NCBI RefSeq assembly: GCF_036507355.1 | Contig: NZ_AP027877.1 | DNA: 64,000 bases | Direction: 5' to 3' (one strand) | Source: Escherichia coli | GTDB lineage: Bacteria > Pseudomonadota > Gammaproteobacteria > Enterobacterales > Enterobacteriaceae | In this document: positions 32,951 through 40,474 of the stretch, one piece after another | How positions within the stretch are numbered: the first letter of the stretch is position 1 | How the letters are laid out: each line of letters begins with the position of its first letter | Position numbers and translations under genes: made by a program | The notes under the pieces: generated by a model | Database searches by the model: none | The model's input: the letters and a program-made list of their open reading frames with translations, nothing else | What the model was told of the DNA's origin: nothing

Positions 32951-34375
32951 TTAGACAATCTCTTCCGCGTACTGCCAAAGCGCTTTTAACAGCGCCACTT
33001 TTTCTTTATCGTCGGCATACTGCTGCGCCAGCATCTGAATCTCTTCTGCATAGCCTTGTAAAAACACGGGTGTGAATACCTGGCGGCGGTGTTCCAGCCA
33101 GCGTTGCTGCTCGGCATAATCCAGCGTCCCCGGGAAGTTGCGCGCCCGATAATTGAACAACAGCTTTTCAATCCGTTTATCGACAAAAGTGATATCCAGT
33201 GCCGGTAAATTACGTGGCTCGGTTTCCAGCACAATTTTCATTGCTGCACGATCGGCGTCACTGAAAAAGCCGTTATAAAGCTGTGCATCCACGTTATCTG
33301 AAGGCGTAAACGGTTCGGCTTCCGCGAATATCGCCACCACTTTTTCGCGCACTTGCGGATTTTCACGCAGAATTTTCAGGTTATCGAGGCAATGCTGACG
33401 ATTAATTCCCAGTCGGTCGGCATCTTCCGGGCGTAGCGTATTCGCCTGGGCCAGCACCGGACATTTATTGATATGCACCAGCTTAACCGGAACGGCGGCG
33501 TTATCGCCAAGATCGGTTTTTGCGGTATATAAACGCTCGCGCAATGTGTCGCTATCCAGTTCCAGTAATGGCGAAATGTCTCCTGCCAAATCCACCATAA
33601 TTACGGCATTGCGATTTTCAGGATGCCACGCCAGCGGTGCCACCCAGCTGGTATTGCCGCGCCATGCCCCAAACATTCCGGAAACGTGAACCAGGGGTTT
33701 CATCTGCGGAACATCAATCAACGCCATCAGTTTGTGTTTATTGCGATGGGTAAAGAGATAATCAAACAGGCGTGGCTGACGCGTTTTTACCAGCTTTGCC
33801 ATCGCAATAGTGGCGTACACATCAGCCATCGCATCGTGGGCGTTGCTATGTTCAATTCCATTCGCTTTGGTTAAATGCTCAAGGCGAAAGCTCGGTAGAC
33901 CGTCATCATTTTCAGGCCAGTTTATTCCTTCCGGGCGCAGGGCATAACAGGCACGCATAACATCAAGTAAATCCCAGCGCGAGTTATCATGCTGCCAGCT
34001 CCAGGCGTAAGGATCGTAGAAATTACGATAAAAAATGTTGCGTGTGACTTCGTCGTCGAAACGCACATTGTTGTAGCCCAGAATACAGGTCTTCGGTACG
34101 GTAAAAAGCGAGTGAATACGGGCGGTAAACGCGGCTTCGTTTTCTCCTTTCGCCCGTGCTTCCTGCGGGGTAATACCGGTAATTAATATGGCTCCAGGCT
34201 GGGGTAAATAGTCATCCGCAGGCTTGCAGTAAAAGACTTCGGGTTCGCCGATGACATTGAATTCGCTATCGGTGCGAATGGCTGCGAACTGTGCAGGGCG
34301 ATCTAACGCGGGGTGCGTGCCAAAGGTTTCGTAATCGTGAAAGAGGAAGGTAGGTTGTTTATCTGTGTCTGTCAT
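32951..34375 (-). CDS. sbcB: Exodeoxyribonuclease I (474 aa)
   Basis: DEDDh exonuclease N-terminus (FHDYETFG); position. Confidence 0.9.
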   Translation of the reverse strand: MTDTDKQPTFLFHDYETFGTHPALDRPAQFAAIRTDSEFNVIGEPEVFYCKPADDYLPQPGAILITGITPQEARAKGENEAAFTARIHSLFTVPKTCILGYNNVRFDDEVTRNIFYRNFYDPYAWSWQHDNSRWDLLDVMRACYALRPEGINWPENDDGLPSFRLEHLTKANGIEHSNAHDAMADVYATIAMAKLVKTRQPRLFDYLFTHRNKHKLMALIDVPQMKPLVHVSGMFGAWRGNTSWVAPLAWHPENRNAVIMVDLAGDISPLLELDSDTLRERLYTAKTDLGDNAAVPVKLVHINKCPVLAQANTLRPEDADRLGINRQHCLDNLKILRENPQVREKVVAIFAEAEPFTPSDNVDAQLYNGFFSDADRAAMKIVLETEPRNLPALDITFVDKRIEKLLFNYRARNFPGTLDYAEQQRWLEHRRQVFTPVFLQGYAEEIQMLAQQYADDKEKVALLKALWQYAEEIV

Positions 34376-34556
34376 TGTCTATCATTGTCCACTGTAGTTA
34401 ATTAACTGTCTGTTATAACTCGAAAAACAACCCTTTTTTCACCTGAGTATGTCTACGAACGTCAAATATAGTTGTTTACTGTGCGCTGTTGTCCATGTGA
34501 TATTGTGTACCAGATGTGTACCAAACTATTATTTCTGAGCGTACCAAATATTATTT

Positions 34557-34853
34557 ATGGCTATAAGCGACACAAAACTGCGTACTATTTATGGTAAACC
34601 ATATTCGGGCCCACAAGAAGTGGCTGATGCCGATGGCCTCAGCGTACGAATTTCACCGAAGGGGGTCATCCAGTTCCAGTACCGCTATCGCTGGCATGGC
34701 AAGCCTAATCGACTTGGGCTTGGTCGATACCCATCCCTGTCTTTGAAGGATGCCAGACAGATCACTGCTGACTTGCGAAAGCTCTATTTCTCAGGAACGG
34801 ATCCACGCACCTATTTTGAAGAGAAGGTGGAGAACTCCATGACGGTACGTTAA
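34557..34853 (+). pseudogene. Integrase N-terminal fragment (arm-binding domain only, 98 aa)
   Basis: Resembles the N-terminal arm-binding domain of P4-family integrases (SDTKLRTIYGKP...GLSVRISPKG...YRYRW); ORF stops before any catalytic domain. Confidence 0.6.
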
Positions 34854-34902
34854 TTTCTTCCGGTGTGAGCGTTGGGGAAGTCCATTCCTTGGGCGCGCGG
34901 AT

Positions 34903-35739
34903 TTGAATACTGTGGAGTTCATCAGTGAAGCACCTAAGTTTCTTATGTGTTTCAGTTCTAATTCACCTATAGACGTATGGGACACCGCTGATTTATTTAT
35001 TAGTGAATGCTCAATGTTTGCTGGAGATTTTGCGGTAAGAACACGCACAACACTTGGTGGGATGGGTGGAACAGACCAATTCGCGGGTTATCCGGTTATA
35101 ATTTCAAATAGCGTTTTTGATGCCATCAACGGTACTGCTTTTGATATGGAGAGTCTAGCTTACGCTACCATCAGCGGTAACATTATTAGTGCAGGGAGGA
35201 TAAACAATAGTCGTGGAATTAATATTAAAGGGGCAAGAAACCTAACATTTACAGGAAACACTATCACTTACTGTGGTGAGTTCGGCATGGTATTGGAAAA
35301 TGCTGAACAATGTTCTTTGTCTAATAATATATTCAACGGAAATAAGACTGGTGGGCTATCGTTGGTAAACTGTAAAGAAATATCTGTTATTGGCGGCTCT
35401 ATGGGTACGTCTTATATCAAAGGTGGGTACTACGTGCAACCACTTGGGATCACAGACCCTGCTGATAACTGTAACGGCATAACCATCAATGGCGTTTCTT
35501 TCGATAGCGATATGACAACCAAGATTTACCTTAATACATCGGAAGAGCGCAAAAACCGTATTATAGCTTGTCTAGGTGTTAATGATACTCAGACGACTTA
35601 TCAAAACCGTGGATCTACTGCGCAGCGCCCTACAGCACCAGTCAGTGGGCAGATGTATTATGATACAACGCTAGGTCTTCCAATATGGTATAACACAGTA
35701 TCATCTGAATGGAAGAGGGCGGATGGTACAAGTGTATGA
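34903..35739 (+). CDS. Phage tail fibre / tailspike fragment (beta-helix repeats), probably truncated
   Basis: Low-GC ORF with repeated NxxGxxxxG beta-helix-like segments; no credible N-terminus; directly precedes gtrC as in serotype-converting phages. Confidence 0.55.
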   Translation: MNTVEFISEAPKFLMCFSSNSPIDVWDTADLFISECSMFAGDFAVRTRTTLGGMGGTDQFAGYPVIISNSVFDAINGTAFDMESLAYATISGNIISAGRINNSRGINIKGARNLTFTGNTITYCGEFGMVLENAEQCSLSNNIFNGNKTGGLSLVNCKEISVIGGSMGTSYIKGGYYVQPLGITDPADNCNGITINGVSFDSDMTTKIYLNTSEERKNRIIACLGVNDTQTTYQNRGSTAQRPTAPVSGQMYYDTTLGLPIWYNTVSSEWKRADGTSV

Positions 35740-35770
35740 TAATGCGGGTGCTTAGCACCCGCTTATTTAA

Positions 35771-37237
35771 TTAATTGCAGTTGAATGTAATGTTTTTATC
35801 GTAAACAAAAATCTTCTTATCTCCGACGTCAATAACCTTTGATGGATTACCAATCTCTTTAATTGTTATATTTCTCATAACCTCATCATCTGTAATTATG
35901 AAATTTCCTCCGCGCTCATACCAATAGTTTTTTGACAACCATTTATTGCATGCAAGTATATTCAAACCTCGGTTTACATCAATCGGAGCAATTGATATGT
36001 CTCCATCTATACTTGCTGATGAAGCAAACCAGAAAGATGCATACCCGTTTGTGAGGTTATTCTGCCTTACAGTGTGTTTTATCTGATTTATAATATCATT
36101 AGAATTGTCTTTTTTTTCATGCATATAAATAGAACAAAAGAGAATAAATGTTGTAACAACCCCTAATGCGATGAATTTCCACCCTCTGGAGTTGTTAGAT
36201 CTGCCAATAACAACAGGTGCTAGTATAAAAAATGGAACGATATATCTTATAGTCCATTCATCTATTGGACGGTTACTTGCAAGGTATGCTGGTATCATTA
36301 TAATACAAGCTATACATATAGCCATATTGACCATGGAGGTTTTGAATATTTCCTTTACTGACATTGCAACTAATATAAGAAGTAAAATCATTACAACAAA
36401 ACAAAAAACAGAAATAAGCGCTGTAATATCAGAAGGTGGTTTGCCAAAGAAGAAAGCTCCACTGTATAGGAGGAATCCTTTTACGAATAAGTATAAATTA
36501 TTCAGGATATCATCAAATGCAACAAATGTTGGATCTGGAACGCCTGGCAAAATGTACCAGTTATGAGCTCTTGCGTACATGGTCATAATTTTTGATGCAA
36601 CATATGCAAATATAGTTGCAACTAGTATGATCAGATTTTTTTGGCTTTTGGTTTTTACTATAAAAATCACTGATGATATTGCTACTGGTGCAATAATGAG
36701 TAGCTTTATGATGTCATCACTGAAACAAGCTAGAACTAACACTAAAATATAAAGAGATAGAGAAATTAACGATCTTGTTTTGGAAAAATTGTCTAACATT
36801 ATGAAGCAAAACAACATGGATACATATGTGCCGACATGTATCACAGGTATTAATACGTTTAATACTGCAAACCCAGAAGGCAGCGCAACGCAAAATGAAA
36901 TGGCCCATAACGATGAAAGCCTTTCTTTTGAAAGATAAAATGTCATCAATGTAACCATTGAATACATAATTGCCGGTATGCAGTATGCTTGGTACTGTCC
37001 GTACCAGAATACCTTTGAAGCAAGTCCGTACCATATTATGTCTGTAAAATAGAATGATACTGTAGAGAGATACCATCCACTAAGCGTCCAATTTCCGTCC
37101 GCAATGTCCTTACCCTCAAGAAGTCCAGAAACAGCATCCGAACTTGGCAAAATCTGTTTTGAAATCGAGGCGTAGAAGAAAGTCAAGAATATAAATCCAA
37201 TGATATATATGGCTGTTTTTTTTATATTTAAAGTCAT
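35771..37237 (-). CDS. Serotype-specific O-antigen glucosyltransferase, GtrC-like (488 aa, polytopic)
   Basis: Large low-GC multi-TM protein immediately downstream of gtrB and gtrA in the same operon. Confidence 0.65.
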   Translation of the reverse strand: MTLNIKKTAIYIIGFIFLTFFYASISKQILPSSDAVSGLLEGKDIADGNWTLSGWYLSTVSFYFTDIIWYGLASKVFWYGQYQAYCIPAIMYSMVTLMTFYLSKERLSSLWAISFCVALPSGFAVLNVLIPVIHVGTYVSMLFCFIMLDNFSKTRSLISLSLYILVLVLACFSDDIIKLLIIAPVAISSVIFIVKTKSQKNLIILVATIFAYVASKIMTMYARAHNWYILPGVPDPTFVAFDDILNNLYLFVKGFLLYSGAFFFGKPPSDITALISVFCFVVMILLLILVAMSVKEIFKTSMVNMAICIACIIMIPAYLASNRPIDEWTIRYIVPFFILAPVVIGRSNNSRGWKFIALGVVTTFILFCSIYMHEKKDNSNDIINQIKHTVRQNNLTNGYASFWFASSASIDGDISIAPIDVNRGLNILACNKWLSKNYWYERGGNFIITDDEVMRNITIKEIGNPSKVIDVGDKKIFVYDKNITFNCN

Positions 37238-37238
37238 T

Positions 37239-38153
37239 TTACTTATCCTTTAGAATGTATCTTGGTCGTTGCTTAACTTCAACATAAATTCTTCCTATAT
37301 ACTCTCCAAGAACTCCTATGCCTATTAACTGAACTCCACCAAGAAACAATATTGATACAATGATAGAAGGGTAACCTGGAACACTATTTCCAAACATCAA
37401 TTTATCAGCAATCATCCATGTTCCATAAAGGAATGATAAGGTTGCCACAAACAGGCCTATATAAGTCCACATGCGCAAAGGGAAAGTAGAAAAGCTAGTG
37501 ATCCCTTCCAGCGCTAAGTTCCAGAGCTTCCATCCATTGAACTTTGTGCTTCCTGCAACGCGTTCTGCTCGCGCATATTCTACGACATCGGTTCGACCAC
37601 CAACCCAGCTCAGCACACCCTTCATAAACAGGTTTCGTTCTGGCATGAGCTTAATGTTTTCTACTACTTCGCGAGACATGAGCCGGAAGTCGCCAACATT
37701 TTCTTCTATCTTAGGGTTGCTGATTTTGTTATGAAGCTTATAGAACCACTCAGCAGATTTACGCTTCAGCCTGCTGTCAGTGGAGCGGTCAGAGCGTTTA
37801 GCCAGAACCATATCTGCACCGGCCTGCCATTTCTCTATCAAGTGAGGAATAACTTCGATAGGGTCTTGCAGATCAACGTCAATCGGGATAATTGCCTCCC
37901 CGGTAGCATGGTCCAGGCCTGCGAACAGGGCGGGTTCTTTGCCGAAGTTACGTGTGAACGACAGCGAAACAACAAGCGGGTCGGCAACAGCAAGCTCGTT
38001 GATAATTGATTCTGTAGCGTCTTTGCTGCCATCGTTTATGAAGACTATCTCGACTTCATGCTGCTGAAGCCCTTCAAATTCGCGCACGGTTTTATAAAAA
38101 ATAGGTATCGTGGCCTCTTCGTTAAAGACCGGAACGACTAAAGAAATTTTCAT
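37239..38153 (-). CDS. gtrB: Bactoprenol glucosyltransferase (GT2) GtrB (304 aa)
   Basis: GT2 N-terminal domain (VVPVFNEE...INDGSKD...DVDLQDP) and two C-terminal TM helices. Confidence 0.85.
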
Positions 38154-38512
38154 TTCGCATCCCTAAAGACAATGAACTTTGAATAGACGAAACCGCACAC
38201 CAGGCTGATGGCGGAGAAGGTGATAAGAGTGACAATTGGAGGAAGTGAACATCTATCAGCAGCCCATCCAACAGTAGCACTGAGTGTTCCCATGAACCCG
38301 ACATATAACATGTAGCGCATCGTTGTAGTTGATGCTTTGAATGTGAATTTTGCATTCGCGAAGAAGCTAAAACTCACAGCCACAACAAAACCTGCGAAGT
38401 TTGCCAGAGCCTGATTGGTATGCGCGGCATAGATACAAACACCAAAAACCACCCAGTGTATAAGGGTGTTCAGCACACCAATAGAGGTGTACTTTGCAAA
38501 TAGCTTTAACAT
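38150..38512 (-). CDS. gtrA: GtrA-family flippase for UndP-glucose (120 aa)
   Basis: Small 4-TM GtrA-like protein; overlaps gtrB start by 4 nt. Confidence 0.85.
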
Positions 38513-38642
38513 TTCTTCTATCAGCTAATAATCAAAGGCATGAAGTCTATCATCCAAGTCTCAATCGATCGATACTTGCTGTAATTGCTGAGACAAAACT
38601 GAGACAAACAAAGCTTTGCACTGGTTTGCAAGTCTTTGTGTC

Positions 38643-38714
38643 ATTCGATAGTTAAGGTGGATCCCTCCACCTTTTCATCAAGCCAATCCGCCCACCACTG
38701 CATCATTTCTCTGC
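38643..38714 (-). pseudogene. Remnant of the 3' end of a P4-family integrase gene
   Basis: Minus-strand translation RREMMQWWADWLDEKVEG... parallels the C-terminus (RIEMMQWWSDYLDAN) of the intact integrase at 55789-57066; the upstream frame is closed by a stop. Confidence 0.5.
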
Positions 38715-39307
38715 GCTTAACGTAGCGGATGCCTCACTATCACACGGTGATGGTTCATTACTGCTTTGTAGAATGGATAGAGAACTGAGGATTAAAAGAT
38801 ATCCCAAAACCCCAAAATCTCATCTTTAGGATTTGCAGAAAGGGAGGCGTGAACAGATACCTGCGCATGAAGACGGAACTAGTCCAGATGTGATATTTGT
38901 GGTGATCACATACATCATCAACGATGCTCGTTATGGTGAGTTTGATGACTACCCGATGAAGTGAAAATTGTGTTGTGTACCAAATTGCGTACCAAACTAA
39001 AATTACAAATCATGAAACCCTTGTTCATGGCGGTTCTCAGGGGTGTTGCGCGTAATCGTGAAACAAAAAGGTAGATTGTTGCTTACCGTCATTCATCATT
39101 AGGTTAAATCCGTTATTTCTGCTGTCTGCCAGAGTATCAAATATCACCGTACTAATCAGCTTTAGCGCCACAATTTGGCAGCGAGTGGCAATAGATCATG
39201 TCAGATAAAAATGAGAGGGTAGTCACATTTTCTTGCACTTTATTCCAGCCAGTTCATAAGTATTTCCGTAAAAAGAACAGCTATTTGAAACTCCTGAGGG
39301 TTTGCTG

Positions 39308-40474
39308 TTGAAACGCCGTCTTATTATTGCTGCTTCTTTGTTCGTTTTTAACTTATCGTCTGGTTTTGCGGCGGAAAACATTCCTTTTTCACCTCAGCCT
39401 CCAGAGATTCATGCCGGGTCCTGGGTACTGATGGATTACACCACCGGACAGATCCTCACCGCGGGTAATGAGCATCAACAGCGCAATCCTGCCAGCCTGA
39501 CAAAGCTGATGACGGGTTATGTCGTGGATCGCGCTATCGATAGTCATCGCATTACGCCAGACGATATTGTCACCGTGGGGCGCGATGCGTGGGCGAAAGA
39601 TAATCCGGTGTTTGTCGGTTCTTCACTGATGTTTTTGAAAGAGGGCGATCGCGTATCGGTACGTGATTTAAGCCGTGGTTTAATTGTTGATTCCGGAAAT
39701 GACGCTTGTGTTGCACTGGCTGACTATATTGCCGGTGGGCAACGGCAGTTTGTTGAAATGATGAACAACTATGTCGAGAAGCTGCATCTCAAGGATACGC
39801 ATTTTGAAACAGTGCATGGCCTGGATGCGCCAGGTCAGCATAGCTCGGCTTATGATTTAGCTGTGCTTTCTCGCGCTATCATCCACGGCGAGCCCGAGTT
39901 TTATCATATGTACAGTGAGAAAAGTCTCACCTGGAACGGTATCACCCAGCAAAACCGTAACGGGTTGTTGTGGGATAAAACCATGAATGTTGACGGCCTG
40001 AAAACGGGTCATACTTCTGGTGCCGGGTTTAATCTCATTGCTTCGGCTGTAGATGGGCAGCGTCGTCTCATTGCAGTGGTAATGGGGGCTGACAGTGCAA
40101 AAGGTCGTGAGGAAGAGGCAAGAAAATTACTGCGTTGGGGGCAACAAAACTTTACTACGGTGCAAATTTTGCACCGTGGGAAAAAGGTCGGAACGGAACG
40201 CATCTGGTATGGCGATAAAGAAAATATCGACCTGGGAACGGAACAAGAGTTCTGGATGGTGCTACCGAAAGCCGAAATTCCACATATCAAAGCCAAATAT
40301 ACCCTTGATGGTAAAGAGCTCACCGCGCCAATTAGCGCCCATCAGCGGGTAGGGGAAATTGAACTTTACGACCGTGATAAACAGGTGGCGCACTGGCCGC
40401 TGGTTACCCTGGAATCTGTCGGGGAAGGCAGCATGTTTTCTCGCCTGAGTGATTATTTCCACCATAAGGCCTGA
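39308..40474 (+). CDS. dacD: D-alanyl-D-alanine carboxypeptidase, PBP6b (388 aa)
   Basis: SxxK, SGN and KTG motifs; start taken as TTG at 39308. Confidence 0.85.
   Translation: MKRRLIIAASLFVFNLSSGFAAENIPFSPQPPEIHAGSWVLMDYTTGQILTAGNEHQQRNPASLTKLMTGYVVDRAIDSHRITPDDIVTVGRDAWAKDNPVFVGSSLMFLKEGDRVSVRDLSRGLIVDSGNDACVALADYIAGGQRQFVEMMNNYVEKLHLKDTHFETVHGLDAPGQHSSAYDLAVLSRAIIHGEPEFYHMYSEKSLTWNGITQQNRNGLLWDKTMNVDGLKTGHTSGAGFNLIASAVDGQRRLIAVVMGADSAKGREEEARKLLRWGQQNFTTVQILHRGKKVGTERIWYGDKENIDLGTEQEFWMVLPKAEIPHIKAKYTLDGKELTAPISAHQRVGEIELYDRDKQVAHWPLVTLESVGEGSMFSRLSDYFHHKA

Follow-up and report, generated by a model that had tools for sequence, protein, structure and literature searches.

The attP of phage lambda contains the arm-type sites P1 and P2 together with P'1, P'2, and P'3, which were reportedly described by Ross and Landy in 1982. 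The attachment core of P4 targets a tRNA-Leu gene, and the P4 arm repeats are said to have been first described by Pierson and Kahn in 1987. In the KplE1 (CPS-53) prophage of Escherichia coli K-12, the arm-type P' sites of IntS overlap the intS promoter and mediate autorepression (PMC2951348). For the Stx2c phage 2851 and the Shigella phage Sf101, a 13-bp attP core, CGTAATCGTGAAA, has been published (PMC4159516). In the papers that could be searched, this core alone had been described for the sbcB-targeting integrase.

Here we analyzed a locus within a 64-kb stretch of E. coli DNA (the window), whose flanks share 97-98.6% identity with E. coli. A full-length exodeoxyribonuclease I gene, sbcB (32951-34375, minus strand), and dacD (39302-40474, plus strand) enclose three minus-strand genes of O-antigen glucosylation cargo: a gtrC-like gene (35771-37237), gtrB (37239-38153), and gtrA (38150-38512). 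A preliminary description had placed the gtr genes between these neighbors, as we did, and the repeated motif strings that it quoted from both ends of the gtr remnant are present as quoted. Its coordinates held for the start of the right string, which spans 38971-39004, while the left string begins at 34504 rather than 34509. The trailing (C/T)T that it gave as part of the motif is not common to all copies.

We found exactly five matches to G[TC]GTACCA[AG]A in the window, all on the plus strand, with three copies in a left cluster (34505-34548), two in a right cluster (38975-38996), and none in the rest of the 64 kb. The left copies are the candidate arm-type Int sites P'1 (GTGTACCAGA, 34505-34514), P'2 (GTGTACCAAA, 34516-34525), and P'3 (GCGTACCAAA, 34539-34548), which start at -52, -41, and -18 from the ATG of the integrase gene (int), P'3 ending 8 bp before it. 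The right copies, in the int-distal arm, are the candidate sites P1 (GTGTACCAAA, starting at 38975 and ending at 38984) and P2 (GCGTACCAAA, 38987-38996). Consecutive copies are 11 and then 23 bp apart in the left cluster and 12 bp apart in the right one, or approximately one or two helical turns. Since GTAC is palindromic, the orientation of the motif can be read only from its flanking bases. In a repeat search, four of the copies formed the top direct-repeat family (D1). The motif is short and AT-rich and lies in an AT-rich region, which would favor its recurrence by chance or an origin in the native spacer between sbcB and dacD. However, dinucleotide-preserving shuffles (n = 100) gave an expectation of 0.31 copies of G[TC]GTACCA[AG]A with a maximum of 3, and 0 of 100 reached 5. 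The 8-mer GTACCAAA occurs 7 times in the window compared to 1.76 expected, and 4 of the 7 copies fall inside the two clusters. The native spacer, examined below, also lacks the motif, which leaves this explanation with next to no probability.

The preliminary description had proposed aligning both ends with an sbcB-dacD spacer that lacks the insertion, and a three-way alignment with the empty site of an ST131 strain does define the junctions. Both lie at the 13-bp core CGTAATCGTGAAA inside the 5' end of sbcB, with one copy per junction. The int-proximal copy (attL in the lambda convention; 34330-34342, plus strand; repeat family D2) is followed by imperfect homology to 34359, and the int-distal copy (attR; 39051-39063, plus strand), which was also recovered by the repeat search, by imperfect homology to 39080. 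In the record of phage mEp234, the same 13 bp are annotated as 'prophage attachment site (type 2851)'. Core to core, the island measures 4,721 bp. On the minus strand, a phage-supplied sbcB 5' end (34343-34375; MTDTDKQPTF...) replaces the native one (MMNDGKQQSTF...), and sbcB remains an intact ORF of 474 aa after the insertion. The displaced native end (39064-39099, minus strand) persists as an orphan fragment adjoining dacD.

These junctions bear directly on the suggestion of the preliminary description that the motif is a duplicated target sequence delimiting the insertion. Similar short sequences do occur near both island ends, and a duplicated target, or att core, should be present once in the empty site and once at each junction. 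This pattern is shown by CGTAATCGTGAAA but not by the motif: the empty ST131 site contains 0 exact copies of GTACCARA, and its three one-mismatch matches to the 8-mer are at chance level. Furthermore, host sequence gives way to island sequence at CGTAATCGTGAAA; one copy of the core precedes the left cluster by 162 bp, and the other follows the right cluster by 54 bp. Both clusters belong to the island, in DNA that free phages carry as one continuous stretch. We therefore regard the target-duplication claim as wrong, with a negligible chance of being correct. A motif native to the spacer, the finding that the preliminary description had named as counting against its own interpretation, was likewise not what the empty site contained. 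Overall, the shuffles and the empty-site comparison led us to reject all three of these explanations: duplication of the target, native spacer sequence, and chance.

When the right end of the island is joined to the left end, the resulting sequence is contiguous in the free phages mEp234, HK544, HK140, Sf101, E212, EC.P3, and APC_JM3.2 (97-99% identity over 100% of the query). This identity spans the whole rebuilt attP and the first 290 nt of int. The order within attP is P1, P2, 54 bp, the 13-bp core, 162 bp, P'1, P'2, P'3, and the int ATG, and P1 lies at -303 from the ATG in contiguous attPs. The motif sites are thus in the att arms, on both sides of the core and outside the crossover core, and their consensus is unrelated to the core. 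All five are identical to those in viable phages, and both att sites are intact. With the core at both junctions, insertion at the 5' end of sbcB, and matching attP arms and int 5' end, the island belongs with the 2851/Sf101-type sbcB-integrating prophages.

The full-length Int of these phages (392 aa) contains an N-terminal Arm-DNA-bind_3 domain (residues 4-85) and a Phage_integrase domain (Pfam). Since 2851-type copies are nearly identical, conservation within the type is uninformative, and our conservation argument draws on comparison across the family. We surveyed relatives with 30-73% identical Int (SEN34, a Klebsiella phage, P27, ENT39118, cdtI, HK225, and IMG/VR loci). All 20 of the distinct upstream regions contain three direct repeats, at approximately -53, -42, and -19 relative to the ATG; the P'1 position is kept throughout, and P'1 itself is identical in mEp234. 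Most contiguous attPs of the relatives also contain a distal pair at approximately -304 and -292; HK225 has one copy there, and in ENT39118 the pair is nearer (-283 and -271). The GTAC center of the motif is constant across relatives while the flanking bases vary jointly in both arms, giving GTACCAAA in the window, AGTACAnAA in SEN34, and TTGTACAWA in cdtI. The invariant columns in an alignment of the P'-arm footprint are concentrated in the core, the three GTAC blocks, a block abutting P'1, and the start-codon region. The best-conserved part of Int across the family is its N-terminal domain, which fits the shared GTAC center.

Since the motifs lie on both arms of an attP, the cognate Int has an arm-binding domain, and the two arms co-vary, the five repeats are very probably the arm-type sites of a P4-like heterobivalent tyrosine integrase of the 2851/Sf101 type, which targets the 5' end of sbcB. 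The predicted binding of Int at the motifs follows from the anatomy of the locus and from comparison with relatives. The suggestion of integrase arm-type binding sites in the preliminary description is therefore well supported: the arms that carry the motifs are contiguous in free phages, and the arrangement of two plus three sites is kept across relatives, P4 included.

We asked whether the repeats might instead bind another recombination accessory protein, such as an AlpA-family excisionase, IHF, or Fis. In intact relatives, an AlpA/HTH excisionase gene lies shortly downstream of int, and directionality factors such as TorI of KplE1 also recognize tandem direct repeats in att arms (PMC2951348). 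However, sites of directionality factors are typically confined to one arm, whereas the motif is on both, in the two-plus-three arrangement of lambda and P4 Int, and the motif center follows the highly conserved Int N-terminal domain. Furthermore, a second repeat, TGTCYA, is a better excisionase candidate in that it is restricted to one arm. Four direct copies on the plus strand (34376, 34386, 34450, and 34490, within 34376-34495) occur in the int-proximal arm, where approximately 0.06 are expected, and the other arm has 0. We consider these repeats candidate sites for excisionase or another accessory protein, and an accessory-protein function for the GTAC motif itself improbable. Since the TGTCYA copies share an arm with the P' sites, other proteins are likely to bind there too, and we count this against the arm-type assignment.

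Another explanation is that the three int-proximal copies serve only as operators of the int promoter, with the two distal copies being incidental. The 8-bp gap between P'3 and the ATG would suit operators, as would the conserved block that adjoins P'1 (GTCCATGTGATATTG, 34491-34505, plus strand; invariant columns of the footprint alignment), within which TGTGATATT is possibly the extended -10 of an int promoter. KplE1 and P4 also regulate int at such sites (PMC2951348). However, the distal pair is conserved in position and co-varies with the proximal triple in unrelated-looking attPs, unlike an incidental pair. In addition, the known regulator at such sites is Int itself, acting via its arm sites, so this explanation largely coincides with the arm-type assignment. 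A purely operator role is thus even less probable than binding by an accessory protein. When 34300-34620 was scanned with strict sigma-70 and terminator criteria, nothing was returned, and no int promoter overlapping the sites was found. Given the empty sigma-70 scan, the autoregulation step is weak, supported by analogy and by a single conserved -10-like block.

Our data indicate that the island is a P22-like prophage stripped of everything from int codon 96 to the middle of the tailspike gene, with gtrABC retained. The truncated integrase ORF, int' (34557-34853, plus strand), encodes 98 aa comprising the Arm-DNA-binding domain alone (PF13356, Arm-DNA-bind_3, residues 4-85, E = 5.5e-19). Its DNA is approximately 99% identical to 2851-type phage int up to 34846, and all 564 E. 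coli int matches end at query position 471, which is window position 34846. A three-way alignment places the internal deletion junction, from int codon ~96 to mid-tailspike, at 34846/34847. Beyond it lies the C-terminal fragment of a beta-helix tailspike gene (34847-35739, plus strand; Pfam Beta_helix) with 98.8% identity to a prophage module of E. coli G4/9. With int truncated at 34846 and the excisionase missing, the island is a remnant and not a mobile element by itself. The deletion junction was absent from all 5,426 complete E. coli genomes, and exact-match scans found it 0 times in GTDB species representatives and 0 times in JGI metagenome contigs; a single short Logan contig (SRR26926489) encodes the same int'. 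There is no support for a deletion mediated by an IS, as the window retains no IS. Hints behind this idea were an IS1203 that lies 5 bp away in Z1723 and an IS3 in the G4/9 tailspike gene.

From these features, we propose the following sequence of events. The analogy with lambda, P4, and KplE1 suggests that Int docks on the arm sites with its N-terminal domain while its catalytic domain acts at the core, a bridging of arm and core that would build the intasome. Int probably also represses its own promoter through the three int-proximal sites. Integration split attP at the core, leaving P'1-P'3 beside sbcB and int' (attL) and P1-P2 beside dacD (attR). A single internal deletion (34846|34847) then probably removed approximately 35 kb, a size suggested by the 38-40-kb genomes of related free phages. 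The resulting remnant, consisting of int', the tailspike fragment, and gtrCBA, cannot move alone, its motif sites being relics, but has kept both att sites.

With intact att sites at both ends and five motif sites identical to their counterparts in viable phages, this O-antigen-modifying island could plausibly be excised or mobilized by a co-infecting phage of the 2851 type. We also considered the possibility that int', which directly follows its three arm sites, is expressed and works as a decoy by occupying arm sites; this seems quite unlikely. If true, such a decoy would engage the sites of incoming phages that target sbcB (Stx2c phages, Sf101, mEp234) or those at the resident att, and would interfere with phage integration or excision or with removal of the gtr island in trans. 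One hint comes from E. coli O157:H7 Z1723, in which an independent IS1203 cuts int at a nearby position and leaves the same ~98-aa ORF; an IS target preference accounts for this coincidence equally well. The weight of these results for basic biology is small, as the mechanism is the textbook lambda/P4 intasome and the integration system is well known. Their use is that the island is exactly delimited, that sbcB is seen to be intact thanks to its phage-supplied 5' end, and that a predicted arm-site consensus and two-plus-three layout are now available for the integrase that places Stx2c phages and Sf101 at sbcB. Judging by title and abstract, none of the papers returned by a full-text literature search for GTACCAAA with 'integrase' dealt with this integrase or att site, and no paper in the literature searched names the motif sites.

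The closest described systems are 2851, Sf101, mEp234, and HK544 ('attP type 2851'), together with P4, KplE1, and lambda. The first four are complete phages with stx2c, oacB, or other cargo, whereas the window island is a 4.7-kb deletion remnant with gtrABC cargo. Published descriptions of 2851-type phages name only the core and leave the arm repeats unnamed. P4, the record of which (NC_001609) annotates 'attP arm sequence repeat' features, has the same order of two distal repeats at a 12-bp step, core, two proximal repeats, and a third that adjoins or overlaps the int start, and int again lies directly beside attP. P4 Int is a distant homolog (BLASTP, 26% identity over 330 aa, E = 2e-13) with the same architecture of Arm-DNA-bind_3 and catalytic domains. 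The P4 motif is GGGGGCA rather than GTACCAAA, its third proximal copy is inverted while that in the window is direct, and its annotated core is 20 bp compared to a 13-bp core in the 5' end of a protein-coding gene here. KplE1 is likewise a gtr-carrying prophage remnant with int adjoining attL, and its gtrA/gtrB DNA is 83% identical to the window genes. It differs in its argW tRNA target, its motif (conserved TAAA), and its site orientation, and IntS is intact in K-12 while the window Int is cut down to the N-terminal domain. Lambda differs in the family of its Int N-terminal domain, in its motif, and in its distances, the P' sites of the window being 162-205 bp from the core and abutting the int ATG. 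Lambda and the window system nevertheless share a heterobivalent Int, two int-distal and three int-proximal sites, and an approximately 10-bp consensus that is unrelated to the core.

We found the pattern G[TC]GTACCA[AG]A five times in the 64-kb window, all on the + strand, with three copies in a left cluster (34505, 34516 and 34539; P'1-P'3) and two in a right cluster (38975 and 38987; P1 and P2). Only 0.31 copies are expected, and 0 of 100 dinucleotide-preserving shuffles reached five. The shorter GTACCAAA alone occurs seven times (1.76 expected), four of them within the two clusters. Copies are spaced by 11, 23 and 12 bp, or approximately one or two helical turns. The strings quoted in the preliminary description are present at the coordinates reported there, except that the left string starts at 34504, not 34509.

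We aligned both island ends with the unoccupied sbcB-dacD site of E. coli ST131. Host sequence reaches the island up to a 13-bp core, CGTAATCGTGAAA, at 34330-34342 and restarts at the same 13 bp at 39051-39063; beyond this core there are 17 further bases of imperfect homology (repeat family D2). The remaining island is 4,721 bp (core-to-core spacing). It had been proposed that the motifs were either integrase arm sites or duplicated target sequence. The latter is refuted, since the GTACCAAA motif has no exact counterpart in the empty site (near-matches occur at chance level only) and the clusters lie on island DNA away from the cores, the left one 162 bp right of the left core and the right one 54 bp left of the right core.

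The core lies within the 5' end of sbcB (32951-34375, - strand), which matches exodeoxyribonuclease I over its full length. Because the island brings in a start of its own, MTDTDKQPTFLFHDYETFG, to replace the native MMNDGKQQSTFLFHDYETFG, sbcB remains intact; the original 5' end survives as an orphan at 39064-39099. The resulting N-terminus is phage-derived (MTDTDKQP... versus native MMNDGKQQS...; 34343-34375, - strand); because it retains the conserved FHDYETFG motif, exonuclease I is probably functional, though expressed from phage-supplied upstream DNA. The displaced 5' end and upstream spacer (39064-39300, - strand), adjoining dacD (39302-40474), face through attR toward gtrA-gtrB-gtrC on the same strand, so transcription from the former sbcB promoter could run on into the gtr operon.

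When the right end, taken up to 39063, and the left end, taken from 34343, were joined in silico, they rebuilt an attP that is contiguous, at full length and 97-99% identity, in the genomes of free phages mEp234, HK544, HK140, Sf101, E212, EC.P3 and APC_JM3.2, while Stx2c and Stx2a prophage records (e.g., 2851 and 1717) match it from the core onward. Its order is P1, P2, 54 bp, core, 162 bp, P'1, P'2, P'3, 8 bp and the int ATG. In the mEp234 record, exactly the 13 core bp carry the annotation 'prophage attachment site (type 2851)', and all five window 10-mers are identical to their mEp234 counterparts. We place the element among the known 2851/Sf101-type sbcB-integrating phages, whose published att description does not mention arm sites (PMC4159516).

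We compared att regions from relatives that share 30-73% Int identity (Salmonella phage SEN34, a Klebsiella phage, P27, ENT39118, cdtI, HK225 and IMG/VR loci). In 20/20 distinct upstream regions a triple of direct repeats precedes the int start (at about -53, -42 and -19), and most relatives with a contiguous attP have a distal pair at about -304/-292 (-283/-271 in ENT39118; one copy only in HK225). The GTAC centre is constant while the flanks vary among phages, but jointly in both arms of each: GTACCAAA in the window, AGTACAnAA in SEN34 (a phage with the same sbcB core), GTACAnAA in the relative locus L030 and TTGTACAWA in cdtI. Aligned int-proximal arms have their invariant columns mainly in the three GTAC blocks, the core, a GTCCATGYGATATTG block abutting P'1 and the start-codon region, with unconserved stretches between them. 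Full-length Int (392 aa) comprises an N-terminal Arm-DNA-binding domain and a tyrosine-recombinase catalytic domain, and the N-terminal domain is its best-conserved part across the family (41-69% identity versus 20-55% in the middle domain).

In the window, this integrase is reduced to int', a 98-aa ORF (34557-34853) with the Arm-DNA-binding domain only (Pfam PF13356, residues 4-85). It is followed by a beta-helix tailspike fragment ORF (34903-35739) and by a gtrC-like gene (488 aa), gtrB and gtrA (35771-38512, - strand). Homology to int stops at 34846, and from 34847 the sequence is instead homologous to a P22-like tailspike-gtr module; at 34846 the window also parts from all 564 E. coli genomes that share its arm and int 5' end. 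A single internal deletion therefore took out everything from int codon ~96 to mid-tailspike. Neither GTDB representatives nor JGI metagenomes contain the deletion junction, and the exact int' product is present in one Logan run. The remnant has intact att sites without catalytic Int or excisionase; its motif sites are relics, and the event behind them is recent.

At the E. coli O157:H7 Z1723 locus (L095, 2682-4290), int is interrupted by IS1203, flanked by a CCC target duplication, at a point 5 bp downstream from where the window's deletion ends, and the same ~98-aa ORF remains; the near-identity may reflect coincidence, an IS hot spot or N-domain retention. The tailspike-gtrCBA module (34847-38646) is 98.8% identical to that of E. 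coli G4/9 (L003, 5001-8802), where both the attached integrase and the site are different, which shows that the O-antigen module is exchanged in mosaic fashion between att/int cassettes. Upstream of gtrA lie ATCGATCGAT and GGATCC (38570-38580 and 38659-38664). Dam/OxyR phase-variation regions are described in Salmonella gtr operons, and by analogy this may be a region of that kind.

We propose that the Int N-domain would bind the five arm sites while the catalytic domain works at the core, and that this simultaneous contact would drive intasome assembly. The three int-proximal sites, which stop 8 bp short of the ATG, probably also give negative autoregulation of int, as shown for KplE1 IntS, with the P4 case reported in the same paper (PMC2951348); a strict promoter scan found no int promoter, which leaves this step weak. 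Separately, four direct TGTCYA copies (34376, 34386, 34450 and 34490; 34376-34495, + strand; about 0.06 expected) occur in the int-proximal arm and none in the other; the last (34490) falls within a block that the family conserves. They may bind the AlpA-type excisionase, in the way that TorI binds its sites in KplE1 attL.

The attP anatomy, the Int arm-binding domain, the conserved repeats of relatives and the P4 layout all support the reading of the clusters as predicted integrase arm-type sites. In the P4 record, features named 'attP arm sequence repeat' follow the same arrangement, with two distal to the core at a 12-bp step and two plus one beside the int start, and P4 Int is a distant homologue. 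Lambda has the same 2+3 count (P1, P2 and P'1-P'3). Since the phage type is known, the sites fit the lambda/P4 arm-site paradigm and we found no paper naming these particular sites, we predict that they are a further case of known arm-type sites, like those of lambda and P4, in a known phage type.
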